Shown here one piece after another: positions 54,568-58,056 of a DNA stretch of 64,000 nucleotides (position 1 is the first letter of the stretch; each line of letters starts with the position of its first letter). The stretch spans positions 72,102 to 136,101 of the forward strand of contig OZ245892.1 of the NCBI GenBank assembly GCA_965229605.1. The letters are read 5' to 3'. Source of the stretch: Alphaproteobacteria bacterium (lineage in GTDB: Bacteria; Pseudomonadota; Alphaproteobacteria; CBDDJK01). A program made the translations under genes and the position numbers. Below the pieces are notes generated by a model that worked only from the letters and a program-made list of their open reading frames with translations, was not told where the DNA came from and did no database searches.

Positions 54568-56091
54568 ATGAATCATATCTATGAAAAGCCTGCCAGCGCG
54601 GGACAACCGGCCTTCGGAGGCGACACTTTGAAGGCCCGTGCATCTAATGTTCGCAAAGATCAGGCCAGTTCAAACTGGCCGGGGCCTTTTTCATCGCACG
54701 CGCAGTTTGTTGAGGCGGTGAGCCAGTTCGCAAGCCATGATTTATTTTCAACGCCACAGGTCGCAACGGGCCTATCCGATCACATGCACCATGATATAGG
54801 TGCCGGAAGCGCTTTTCGCCGCAGCCTTCGTCCACAGGATATCGATTTTATCAAAGAGCGGGGTCAAATAAAAGCCTCGGAATTCAGATGTTCGGGTGCT
54901 TTGCTTGGGCAGCGGATTTTAAATGTGATTTACGAACAGGACCTGGTTTTTATACCAGAGCAACAGAAAAAAGAGGACCGTGATTTTCAAGCTTTTTATG
55001 ACCCGAATTTGCGGGCACTGGGTCAGATGATTCGCCCCGGTTTGGAATCCTTCCTGTTTTCATGGCTGGATACAGAAATCGGCTTGTCCGGGAATTGGGA
55101 TAAGGAGCAGATGCGGGCCTATCTGATGCTGCGGCTGGCGCAAGACCGGTCCGGCGAAAGCGAACTCTGCAAGACAATCACGCAGGCCCAAAACCCGGAA
55201 GCGGCGGGCAAACTATTTCTGGTCCAGCTGGCCTCTGACTTTGTCACTGAAGCCTCGGCAATGGCGCGTAATGTTCTGGGGAATTACGGCCCCAGCCTGT
55301 CCGAGCTTTTTACCATTCTGATTGATGAATATGGCTATGGTGTCCACCCTTCAAAACATTCCTCCCTGTTTGAAAAGACCCTTGCCAGTGTTGATCTTTC
55401 GCCCAATGTTCACGCCTATTGGGGCCATTTCCTGGGGTCAAGTCTGGCTCTGGTCAATTATTTCCATTATATATCAGCCAATCACCAGTATTTCTTCCGC
55501 TATCTTGGCGCGATGCTTTATACGGAAGGTACTCTATATGAATCCAATCGCCAGCAATCCGCTATGCTGCGTCAGGTCTTTGGGGATAAAATTGATCGTC
55601 AGTATTTTGATGAACATGTCCATATTGATAAACATCATGCCCAGATGGCTCTGGACCGGGTTATTGACCCGGTGATCGAACGCTGCGGGGTTCAGGTGAT
55701 CCCGGAAATCGTGCGCGGTTTTGAAGAATTTGCCCTGTTGCAAAATATGGCGGATCGCGACCTGATGGCACAGATTGTCTGGGCCGATGGGTTAAAGGTT
55801 GCTTCAAACAAGGATCGGCCCCTGAAAGAACTTGCGAAAACAGACCTTGCAGCCAGCGCGTTTTCGGAAAAACCTGCCGAAGTCTCGGTCCCGCATGTTC
55901 ACGACCTGCCTGAATGGTTTGAAGTCGAAGAAGGGGTGCTGCAATTTTATGCCAGCCCCTTTCATATCCATACACTTGCCGCCGGGGATGCTGTTTATAT
56001 CCCGCAGTTTCGCCATCACGGCACCCTGATCGGTGATCAGCCCTGTCGCTATCGGGCCTATCCTTTTGCTGATTCAGCGGTTGCGCAATAA
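54568..56091 (+). CDS. SznF-like heme-oxygenase-like diiron oxidase (HDO) fused to a C-terminal cupin; candidate N-oxygenase / N-N bond-forming enzyme
   Basis: 507 aa. By manual residue count, E228, E254, H264, E320, H350, D354 and H357 reproduce exactly the E-26-E-10-H-56-E-30-HxxxDxxH spacing I recall for the SznF central-domain ligands (E189/E215/H225/E281/H311/D315/H318). The local motifs are LIDEYGYGVHPSKH and FDEHVHIDKHH. C-terminal H443/H445/H484 reproduce the +2/+39 spacing of the SznF cupin three-His site. Confidence 0.6.
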   Translation: MNHIYEKPASAGQPAFGGDTLKARASNVRKDQASSNWPGPFSSHAQFVEAVSQFASHDLFSTPQVATGLSDHMHHDIGAGSAFRRSLRPQDIDFIKERGQIKASEFRCSGALLGQRILNVIYEQDLVFIPEQQKKEDRDFQAFYDPNLRALGQMIRPGLESFLFSWLDTEIGLSGNWDKEQMRAYLMLRLAQDRSGESELCKTITQAQNPEAAGKLFLVQLASDFVTEASAMARNVLGNYGPSLSELFTILIDEYGYGVHPSKHSSLFEKTLASVDLSPNVHAYWGHFLGSSLALVNYFHYISANHQYFFRYLGAMLYTEGTLYESNRQQSAMLRQVFGDKIDRQYFDEHVHIDKHHAQMALDRVIDPVIERCGVQVIPEIVRGFEEFALLQNMADRDLMAQIVWADGLKVASNKDRPLKELAKTDLAASAFSEKPAEVSVPHVHDLPEWFEVEEGVLQFYASPFHIHTLAAGDAVYIPQFRHHGTLIGDQPCRYRAYPFADSAVAQ

Positions 56092-56126
56092 GCGGGCGCA
56101 ATAAGATTATATAACCGGCCCCCGGA

Positions 56127-56504
56127 TTGTTGAAAGCTGATCACATGACTCCCCCAAGCGCAAGCATTCTTGAATTTTCGCGTGACAAGCGGTGCGTGCG
56201 CGGGGCAGATTCGCATCGCTATTTTTGCCTTACCCTTGAGGGGGAAACGCTGGTGCTGCCAAGCCGCTGTCCGCATCGTGGTGGGCCCTTGCACCTTGCG
56301 CGATTTGATGACAAGACTCAGGCTCTGGTTTGCCCATGGCATCAGTTACGGCTCAGGCCTGCTGTGTTGAGGCGCATGGCTCTGCCGACCGTCACGGTTG
56401 GAGGGTCTTGCCGCACGCTCAATATGAATGATCAGCAAGAGCCGGTGAAAGACACTTCTTCCCGTCAGGAGAATCTCAGGCAGGAGCATTATGAAAAATT
56501 TTGA
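56127..56504 (+). CDS. Rieske [2Fe-2S] domain protein (small ferredoxin-like)
   Basis: CPHRGGPL ... CPWHQ is the CxH-N-CxxH Rieske ligand pattern, in 125 aa. It sits 35 bp after the HDO gene, and its end overlaps the permease start. Confidence 0.75.
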   Translation: MLKADHMTPPSASILEFSRDKRCVRGADSHRYFCLTLEGETLVLPSRCPHRGGPLHLARFDDKTQALVCPWHQLRLRPAVLRRMALPTVTVGGSCRTLNMNDQQEPVKDTSSRQENLRQEHYEKF

Positions 56505-58056
56505 TCAAAAGCAGCTCGAAAAAACATTAGGCCTTGGCGGGGCAGTTGCGCTTGCACTTGGCACCGTTTTAGGCGCCGGGATGCTGGCTCTGCCCGGCCT
56601 GATCCAGATCGTCTCAGGCGATTTCGCCGTCTGGGTCTGGGTGCTTAATGGCATATTGGTCATTCCGCTGCTGGCAGTATTTGCCTGGCTTGGCCGCAAT
56701 TACCCGGGTTCAAGCGGTATTGCCGGATTCGTTGCCGCAGCCTATCCGTTCCTTAAAGACAGTTGCAGCCTGCTGGTGATCGGAACCTTCGCCCTGGGAT
56801 TTCCCGGTATTGCCTTGACCGGGGCGGCCTATCTCGTGCAAGGCGTTGATATCGAAAGCGAATCCATATCGCCACTGATGATCGCCCTGATCGCCGCTGT
56901 CTTGATGATGACCCCGCTGCTGGGGGCCTGGTCCGGCGCACGCAAGGCCGATTCACTGCAACGCTGGATCATCAGTATCTTGCTCGTTTTCCTCTGTCTG
57001 GTTGCCGGACTTGGATTTTGGTCTCTTTTTGGTTCAAGTGAAATAAAAGTGACCCCGGCTGCTGGACAAAGCCTGCTGGCAATCGAACCCGGTGAGTGGA
57101 AAAACATCTTTATGACCAGCCTGTGGCCCGGCATGACACTCGCCTTCTTTGCCTATACAGGCTGGGAAATGATGGCCTTTACCTCTGGAGAGTTCAAAAA
57201 TCCACGTCGCGACTTTCCACTCTCCATCCTGATCAGCTTTTTTCTCGTCCTCGCCCTTTATGGAGGCATCGCCCTGGCTGTGGCGCAGGTGCCAGCCAAC
57301 GAACTGATCGCCTCGCCCGAAACATCGCTGCTCAATGTGATCGAACGAACACTCGCCTTTCCAGGAGTCGGAATCCTCACCGCCATCCTCGTCATCATGA
57401 TTATTATCGTCAATCTCAACGCCGCAATCTGGGCCGCCTCACGCCTGACCTGGTCCTTTGCCCATGACCTCACCAGCCGGGGCCTTATTCCTCTGCGCCT
57501 CGGGCTGGACCGGCTCAGCGGAACGCCGCCTACCCCGCGCCCGGCCATCCTGTTGATCGCCGGGGTCTTTAGCCTCGTGCTCATGGCCTATGGAACCGGA
57601 TGGGTCCAGATCGATACATTGCTCAGCCTGGCCGGGCAGAACTTCTTCGTGCTCTACCTCTTCACCATCCTGGCCTTTATCAAACTGGTCAAAGCCCGCA
57701 CCTTGAAAATTGCCGGAGTCGGCGTATTGGCCCTGTCCTTCGCCTTTATCGCCGGATGGGGACTCGGCCTGATCTATGCGGCTGTCCTATGTTTGCTGCC
57801 GCTCCTCCTCCAGGTTCCGGCAAGATTTCTCCCTGCCCGCAACCATACACAAATGACGGAGGTTTCCATGAACAAACCCTATCCCAAAGAACAGGGCTCA
57901 AAAGAAGAAGCTATAGAGACGATAAAATCACTACGCGAAAGCGCACTTGGCGGCCAATATTCAAAAAAACAGCTAAAGACAATTATGGAAAAACTCGATA
58001 CGCTGGAAAAACAGGCCACGTCCCCCACCCAGCCGGTCAACGTAACCGGGGCTTAG
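56491..58056 (+). CDS. APC-superfamily amino-acid permease with a hydrophilic C-terminal tail
   Basis: Twelve predicted TM helices with an APC-like N-terminus (GLGGAVALALGTVLGAGMLALPG) and a 60-aa charged C-terminal extension. It overlaps the Rieske gene by 14 bp. Confidence 0.75.
   Translation: MKNFDQKQLEKTLGLGGAVALALGTVLGAGMLALPGLIQIVSGDFAVWVWVLNGILVIPLLAVFAWLGRNYPGSSGIAGFVAAAYPFLKDSCSLLVIGTFALGFPGIALTGAAYLVQGVDIESESISPLMIALIAAVLMMTPLLGAWSGARKADSLQRWIISILLVFLCLVAGLGFWSLFGSSEIKVTPAAGQSLLAIEPGEWKNIFMTSLWPGMTLAFFAYTGWEMMAFTSGEFKNPRRDFPLSILISFFLVLALYGGIALAVAQVPANELIASPETSLLNVIERTLAFPGVGILTAILVIMIIIVNLNAAIWAASRLTWSFAHDLTSRGLIPLRLGLDRLSGTPPTPRPAILLIAGVFSLVLMAYGTGWVQIDTLLSLAGQNFFVLYLFTILAFIKLVKARTLKIAGVGVLALSFAFIAGWGLGLIYAAVLCLLPLLLQVPARFLPARNHTQMTEVSMNKPYPKEQGSKEEAIETIKSLRESALGGQYSKKQLKTIMEKLDTLEKQATSPTQPVNVTGA

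Follow-up and report, generated by a model that had tools for sequence, protein, structure and literature searches.

A minimal SznF-Rieske-permease operon without methyltransferase or tailoring genes in an uncultured alphaproteobacterial lineage

We analyzed a 64-kb stretch of DNA from an uncultured alphaproteobacterial lineage (64,000 nucleotides, positions 72,102 to 136,101 of contig OZ245892.1, assembly GCA_965229605.1; hereafter the window). On its + strand lies a three-gene operon, 54568..58056, that runs from an SznF-family enzyme through a small Rieske protein to an APC permease. Our main finding is that this locus is a minimal SznF-Rieske-permease operon, without methyltransferase or tailoring genes, in a family whose existence and spread were already known. 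The operon and the features next to it are as follows.

54568..56091, + strand: SznF-family tri-domain enzyme of 507 residues, with an N-terminal domain, a heme-oxygenase-like diiron (HDO) N-oxygenase domain and a three-histidine (3-His) mono-iron cupin domain
56145..56504, + strand: stand-alone Rieske [2Fe-2S] protein of 119 residues, recognised by Pfam Rieske, invariant cluster motifs and AlphaFold2 (AF2) fold
56491..58056, + strand: APC-superfamily amino-acid permease of 521 residues (AA_permease_2, 2e-30)
54385..54497, strand not given: putative operator-like repeat cluster, four CCGACAWWWTG matches including the palindrome CCGACAAAATGTCGG
58066..58641, - strand: class-I S-adenosylmethionine (SAM) methyltransferase of 191 residues, weak generic class-I matches, convergent to the operon

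Pfam recovered the Rieske protein, the APC permease and the small class-I methyltransferase on the opposite strand as a preliminary description, made from the sequence alone, had placed them. An AAGGA ribosome-binding site stands 8 nt upstream of the start at 54568, and the first 14 nt of the permease gene, which starts at 56491, lie within the Rieske gene, an overlap that suggests co-translation. The GC content of the genes (0.51-0.56) is close to that of the window (0.53), the only AT-rich stretch being the promoter, and composition gave no signal of recent horizontal acquisition. The RpoH protein of the window reaches 69% identity at most with named proteins, which are all alphaproteobacterial (Sandaracinobacter, Sphingomonas, Pedomonas), and has a 99% match on a 2.73-Mb contig of the European Nucleotide Archive (ENA), in agreement with an uncultured alphaproteobacterial host.

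Judged by sequence, profile and predicted fold, the product of 54568..56091 is a genuine full-length SznF-family HDO-cupin enzyme. Its translation has E228, E254, H264, E320, H350, D354, H357, H443, H445 and H484 at the positions that the preliminary description had counted by hand. A phmmer search against PDB sequences returned SznF (6m9r/6vzy/6m9s) at E=2e-106, with query residues 70-502 lying on SznF 35-466; at such E-values chance is not an issue. In this alignment E228/E254/H264/E320/H350/D354/H357 fall on SznF E189/E215/H225/E281/H311/D315/H318 (offset 39), and H443/H445/H484 on H407/H409/H448 (offset 36). The extra ligand E189, matched by E228, belongs to auxiliary helix alpha2 of SznF. 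The SznF numbers agree with the literature: E215...H318, H407/H409/H448 and Y459 are given in PMC11705231, E189 and D185 in PMC7848743. The statement that the ligand spacings match those of SznF without a single gap is true of each domain taken alone; the HDO-cupin linker has a 3-residue indel. Moreover, the string in which the spacing was written mixed two conventions, '-3-D-2-H' counting intervening residues and the other numbers being position differences. All ten metal ligands are invariant in 30 diverse homologues, and the 81 genome-survey sequences show a single exception, an F in place of H443 in one of them, the seven diiron ligands being invariant.

Profiles and structure lead to the same place. 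Pfam matched Haem_oxygenas_2 at 1.7e-29, and Cupin_2 weakly, below its gathering score (21.1 versus 27.2 bits). An AF2 model built on the 30 homologues (predicted local distance difference test (pLDDT) 85, predicted template modelling score (pTM) 0.87) has the three-domain architecture of SznF, on which Foldseek superposed it over 471 columns with a template modelling score (TM) of 0.81 (query-normalised) or 0.90 (target-normalised) and a root mean square deviation of 2.5-3.0 Å. The first 12 structures in the Foldseek ranking were SznF, followed by the N-oxygenases HrmI and RohS. A non-HDO fold, one of the readings that the preliminary description had set against its own, is excluded by these SznF-topped matches and by the alignment. 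Ligands, phmmer, Pfam and AF2/Foldseek therefore agree on the SznF-like HDO-cupin identity originally proposed.

In SznF, the residues that touch the amino-acid end of the substrate are D185, R48, E398 and Y459 (PMC7848743 for D185; plus a computational study of SznF). Their equivalents D224, R88, E434 and Y495 are invariant, both in the 30 homologues and in the 81 sequences. As these contacts to the alpha-amino and alpha-carboxylate groups are kept, the substrate should be an arginine-like alpha-amino acid.

The operon was compared with 80 genome and 80 metagenome loci encoding SznF homologues, plus annotated plasmid loci; the metagenome loci were obtained with the clade alignment as query, a single-protein query having found nothing. 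With about 300 clusters at 50% identity in a library of 1.84 billion representative proteins (299 under a cut-off of E<=1e-3, 96 under E<=1e-30), the SznF family is small, so that each new gene context adds real information. In a neighbor-joining tree of the 81 genome-survey sequences, the clades of the enzyme correspond to gene context. In the actinobacterial clade an SznE resembling protein arginine methyltransferases (PRMT) is encoded upstream (37 loci), together with Rieske and ATP-grasp genes; the beta/gamma-proteobacterial clade has Rieske, MFS, ATP-grasp, B3/4-domain and Lrp genes; and the alphaproteobacterial clade has a divergent Lrp/AsnC gene followed by SznF, Rieske and APC permease. 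The window enzyme belongs to the last of these, its sister being a protein from a metagenome-assembled genome with 55% identity.

This alpha-type layout was found in 17 loci from genomes, metagenomes and plasmids, in hosts that are free-living and plant-associated (Azospirillum, Magnetospirillum and the window's own lineage). All-against-all clustering of these loci revealed no conserved gene beyond Lrp, SznF, Rieske and permease. The pfkB kinase, ispE and carD genes of the window were tried as members of the system and rejected, none being conserved in related loci. Of the 17 loci, 13 carry Lrp, and three of the four without it do have upstream DNA; the window, unlike most of its clade, lacks the gene. 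A complete Lrp-SznF-Rieske-permease module lies on the conjugative plasmid p5 of Azospirillum argentinense (L082, 132475..136100), among insertion-sequence and toxin-antitoxin-like genes, its flanks being an IS3 transposase and Fic/DOC and ribbon-helix-helix genes; a conjugative plasmid and insertion-sequence flanks suggest that the alpha-type module may move as a cassette.

The second gene of the operon, the Rieske gene, was given its start at ATG 56145, from which the homologues align, an alternative being TTG at 56127. Its motif CPHRGGPL...CPWH (C42-P-H44, C63-P-W-H66) is invariant in 79 partner proteins, its match to Pfam Rieske PF00355 (5.7e-6) is above cut-off, and an AF2 model built from database homologues (pLDDT 82) gave as top fold matches exclusively Rieske domains or Rieske-type ferredoxins, at a modest TM of 0.5-0.6. 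In codons 1-96, the window and a closely related strain in an ENA metagenome (L081) are separated by 8 changes that are synonymous and 0 that are non-synonymous, which identifies the core as a real gene under purifying selection; the C-terminal tail is freely variable, and in L081 it stops sooner. The gene is uncalled in the public ENA record (window 56127..56504; L081 11560..11940) and the protein is absent from a collection of 5.8 billion proteins. It seems that annotation systematically overlooks a gene this short whose start is weak.

In 79 of the 80 genome loci the gene immediately after the SznF homologue is a Rieske gene, the contig of the 80th ending at the sznF stop. The same partner occurs in all metagenome loci whose DNA extends far enough downstream, save one subtype (L097/L098). 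In L098 it is found 672 nt downstream of the SznF homologue, not abutting it, and the L097 contig ends before that point; the spacing of about 670 nt implies an extra small gene between the two. A Rieske gene also stands beside distant plasmid homologues with 33-34% identity (Pantoea, Methylobacterium), and reverse look-ups from two Rieske homologues showed that both adjoin SznF homologues.

Variants of the enzyme show which domain the Rieske protein accompanies. Eight metagenome variants (L150, L156, L157, L159, L161, L163, L164 and L165) have intact HDO ligands and two degenerate cupin histidines (H443R; H445C/F/T/Y), and all eight keep the Rieske gene. On a Rhizobium leguminosarum plasmid, a 343-residue HDO-only homologue with all diiron ligands (L170, 4698..6243) is followed by an 84-residue Rieske protein (CPHRGGPL...CPMHH). 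MobE of Tistrella is the opposite case, having lost the HDO ligands and kept the cupin histidines, and no Rieske-family open reading frame (ORF) was found within 8 kb of it, even at E<=10; a plasmid search for further HDO-dead GrbD-type loci returned the Tistrella locus alone. Rieske presence tracks the diiron domain and not the cupin domain. This fits the chemistry, because the two N-hydroxylations consume external electrons and the cupin step needs none, as indicated for the SznF cupin rearrangement by the computational study. Near-universal adjacency and the tracking of the HDO domain thus make the Rieske protein the probable electron donor to the diiron site, a role that the preliminary description had called plausible. 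Rieske ferredoxins that reduce diiron hydroxylases have a precedent in the toluene monooxygenases (T4moC).

Three observations were made in passing on these loci. Four of the cupin-degenerate variants (L150, L156, L163 and L164) have an APC-type permease together with a PRMT-like methyltransferase 1.4-2.8 kb downstream, a further undescribed layout. The HDO-only homologue of R. leguminosarum is missing from the incomplete gene table of the plasmid collection, and has deaminase and GTP cyclohydrolase II genes in its vicinity. Finally, on plasmid pVL1_1 of Methylobacterium indicum (L084, 2948..4783), a 611-residue MOSC/FAD-NAD-binding/2Fe-2S ferredoxin fusion is encoded just upstream of a methyltransferase-SznF-Rieske-ATP-grasp cluster; it could be an NAD(P)H-dependent Rieske reductase, or a reductase of N-hydroxylated compounds.

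As for the permease, its best NCBIfam match is the YjeH-type model NF008245 (1.2e-38, 133 bits versus a cut-off of 284; next best 67 bits). Its orthologues follow the Rieske gene in 16 of the 16 alpha-clade loci having downstream DNA. The permease therefore belongs to the system, as had been supposed, and its conservation is confined to the alphaproteobacterial clade of 17 loci. It takes the slot held by an MFS transporter in the beta/gamma-proteobacterial clusters.

SznE-type partners are PRMT-like (PF22528/PrmA) and adjoin sznF in the 37 actinobacterial loci and in the Pantoea, Methylobacterium and Blastocatellia clusters. A phmmer search with an SznE-like query found no such gene in the window, nor within 8-10 kb in the 17 alpha-type loci. 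ATP-grasp homologues are present in 63 of the 80 genome loci, and none was detected in alpha-type loci or in the window. The preliminary description had set the convergent methyltransferase at 58066..58641 beside SznE, and this comparison failed. The gene is 1 nt from carD, with which it is apparently co-transcribed; its product shows weak similarity to glycan/MftM-type methyltransferases, and no PRMT domain signal in Pfam, and none of the 160 related loci that were scanned encodes a homologue. It was ruled out as an SznE analogue on these grounds, and is unrelated to the SznF operon.

Residues flanking the active sites also differ systematically between methyltransferase-linked and methyltransferase-less clades (for example, in SznF numbering, P192 to A, W208 to L, N405 to V, C415 to F and N445 to G). 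Ada-type O6-alkylguanine repair/regulator genes stand beside two methyltransferase-bearing SznF clusters (L085, 4670..5746, on a Pantoea dispersa plasmid; L088, 1257..2036), which is consistent with self-protection against a DNA-methylating N-methyl-N-nitrosourea. No Ada-type gene was seen near the window's locus or in the alpha clade.

The intergenic region upstream of 54568 has 34% GC and contains, in 54385..54497, all four matches to CCGACAWWWTG present in the window, where 0.33 would be expected. One pair of copies forms the palindrome, and the two others are direct copies. These repeats are a candidate regulator binding site, in a locus without the Lrp gene of its clade. Nothing convincing was found on the + strand as a sigma-70-like promoter upstream of 54568 or as an intrinsic terminator after 58056.

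Among known systems, the closest is SznF/StzF of Streptomyces achromogenes (6M9R, 6VZY), which shares the three domains and about 39% (structure-based) to 45% identity over 430 residues, with identical diiron (3H/4C) and 3-His cupin ligands, equivalents of D185, R48, E398 and Y459, and a small Rieske gene directly downstream in both lineages. Unlike it, the alphaproteobacterial operon has no adjacent SznE and no ATP-grasp gene (SznH/K-type), carries an APC permease, and shows clade-specific substitutions beside both active sites. The beta/gamma clusters (Pseudomonas, Chitiniphilus, Jeongeupia, Reinekea) resemble it in lacking a methyltransferase, in the order SznF-Rieske-transporter and in being usually Lrp/AsnC-linked; they differ in that the transporter is MFS rather than APC, and in the ATP-grasp ligase and B3/4-domain protein that follow, which imply extra tailoring.

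GrbD, MobE and ChmM, which belong to the pathways of graminine (diazeniumdiolate) metallophores, share a homologous scaffold, a preserved 3-His cupin and an unmethylated L-arginine precursor. Their diiron ligands are lost, and a reliance on a separate heme N-oxygenase is reported (PMC11177257). They differ further by a nonribosomal peptide synthetase (NRPS) context and, at the one locus examined, by having no Rieske gene, whereas the window enzyme has an intact HDO site; no NRPS or YqcI/YcgG gene was seen near the window operon. The Rieske ferredoxins of multicomponent oxygenases, for example BphF, TodB and CarAc, are likewise small stand-alone proteins of the Rieske fold (about 105 residues, CxH...CxxH ligands), each encoded beside the oxygenase that it would serve. 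The Rieske protein of the operon differs from them by its low identity (10-19%, TM about 0.5-0.6), by the absence of an adjacent reductase gene and by a partner of HDO rather than ferritin-like fold.

The preliminary description had held that no characterised alphaproteobacterial pathway uses this gene set. None appears in the literature searched; the word 'undescribed' that it drew from this needs qualifying, since a 2024 study catalogued 426 SznF homologues in three main similarity clusters, most with unknown products (PMC11177257). The alpha-type operon and the Rieske partner of the family are not mentioned in the literature searched, and look-ups on SznG/StzG and on Rieske with nitrosourea gave nothing relevant, the two founding SznF papers lying outside that search.

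From these comparisons we lean, on balance and by a modest degree, towards an operon that converts a free guanidino amino acid into an N-N-bonded derivative, with unmethylated L-arginine as the most probable substrate. The diiron HDO domain, with its SznF-like fold, ligands and contact residues, would hydroxylate a guanidine nitrogen twice, each round costing O2 and two electrons. As the co-occurrence of the genes suggests, these electrons would come through the dedicated small Rieske ferredoxin, re-reduced by a general cellular reductase. By homology to SznF, the 3-His cupin iron would then rearrange the dihydroxyguanidine into an N-nitroso product, nitrosourea or diazeniumdiolate, with no external reductant, and the YjeH-like APC transporter may export it. 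An unstable product would decay, inside or outside the cell, with release of nitric oxide (NO) or N2 and an N-hydroxy amino acid. Unmethylated L-arginine is favoured as substrate because the alpha clade has no arginine methyltransferase and because the flanking residues differ; with methylation and ATP-grasp tailoring both missing, the pathway would stop at a free amino acid or at what this breaks down to. Candidates for this product are nitroso-hydroxycitrulline or a graminine-like diazeniumdiolate, as a free amino acid.

Several points weigh against this reading. The equivalent of SznF M193, a residue proposed to favour the N-methyl substrate (PMC7848743), is invariant in all clades, so that the pocket is not obviously remodelled for unmethylated arginine; for the same reason M193 had to be abandoned as a discriminator between methylated and unmethylated substrates. 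A methyltransferase may be encoded elsewhere in the genome. A primary (unmethylated) N-nitrosourea would be very labile chemically, so that a stable product for export is doubtful except in the form of a diazeniumdiolate. The permease scores below the cut-off of the YjeH model, transport direction cannot be read from sequence alone, and APC relatives also occur in some methyltransferase-bearing clusters (L150, L156, L163, L164). Furthermore, the absence of a Rieske gene from HDO-dead relatives was seen at a single locus (Tistrella MobE), and no reductase for the Rieske protein is encoded near the operon.

The foremost alternative is the canonical SznF reaction on N-omega-methyl-L-arginine, obtained from an unlinked methyltransferase or through APC uptake, which would yield an N-methyl-N-nitrosourea amino acid acting as an alkylating toxin. 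It is in keeping with the conservation of all SznF catalytic and substrate-contact residues, M193 included, with the substrate of the sole characterised family member (PMC11705231), and with the APC relatives in some methyltransferase-carrying clusters. We nevertheless hold it to be unlikely: neither the window nor, within 8-10 kb, any of the 17 alpha-type loci has the PRMT-like gene that is always adjacent in methyltransferase-using lineages, the Ada-type repair genes that flank two methyltransferase-bearing clusters have no counterpart beside the window's locus, and the residues near the active sites separate the two kinds of clade.

A catabolic or scavenging role appears more improbable still. 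Here the permease would take up arginine, methylarginine or some analogous guanidino amino acid, Lrp would sense it, and the enzyme would oxidise the guanidine for nitrogen or detoxification. An Lrp/AsnC regulator (13 of the 17 alpha-type loci) with a permease and an enzyme is a typical catabolic layout, and tailoring genes are missing; but the route would be costly (three O2 and four electrons) and would end in a reactive N-nitroso species instead of ammonia, the relatives that have been characterised or implicated are all biosynthetic (PMC11177257, PMC11705231), the permease resembles the YjeH-type model, and the window has no Lrp gene. That the HDO domain makes N-hydroxy- or dihydroxy-arginine as end product, with a structural or regulatory cupin, is very improbable for this protein. 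The cupin-degenerate variants and the HDO-only homologue, which keep their Rieske gene, indicate that such a simple N-oxygenase function occurs in the wider family; however, the three cupin histidines, Y495 and E434 are strictly conserved in the protein and in its whole clade, which argues for a working cupin site. Lowest of all, with a negligible probability, stands a TenA/PqqC-type cofactor-salvage protein without oxygenase role, a reading that the preliminary description had itself raised against an SznF-like enzyme. The helical fold is shared and a TenA-like structure appears at rank 34 of the fold search (query-normalised TM 0.34), yet SznF fills the top 12 places with HrmI and RohS next, the seven-residue diiron set is complete and a redox partner is always adjacent; the SznF alignment and fold search effectively refute it.

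Outside these subjects, three consecutive ORFs at 62036..63862 on the - strand look by eye like a 3-hydroxyacyl-CoA-dehydrogenase-type, a small thioesterase-like and a beta-keto-acid-cleavage-type gene, a trio reminiscent of carnitine/betaine catabolism.

Returning to the unmethylated L-arginine reading, a further and much more speculative step, which we regard as doubtful, is that the alpha-type module converts free L-arginine, without the use of heme, into a labile amino acid of N-nitroso or diazeniumdiolate type, serving as an NO donor (secreted or intracellular) or as a small metal-binding signal. If this is true, the whole SznF family would have its physiological reductant in the Rieske protein; the literature searched names none. 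'NOS-like' (nitric oxide synthase-like) NO production that depends on arginine has been reported for Azospirillum, which is not known to have a recognisable NOS gene; a literature search on this gave tangential reviews only.

The Rieske partner has practical consequences. In-vitro work on SznF reportedly used artificial mediators, which the Rieske protein could replace as the candidate physiological donor. It is also a partner that automated annotation can miss, and an extra marker for genome mining. We know of very few enzymes that build N-nitroso groups, and to our knowledge SznF is the sole biochemically characterised member of its family, studied with a methylated substrate. The alpha-type operon would offer a clean system for examining the action of this family on plain arginine and the role of the free product, which may be a toxin, an NO donor, a metal ligand or a signal.

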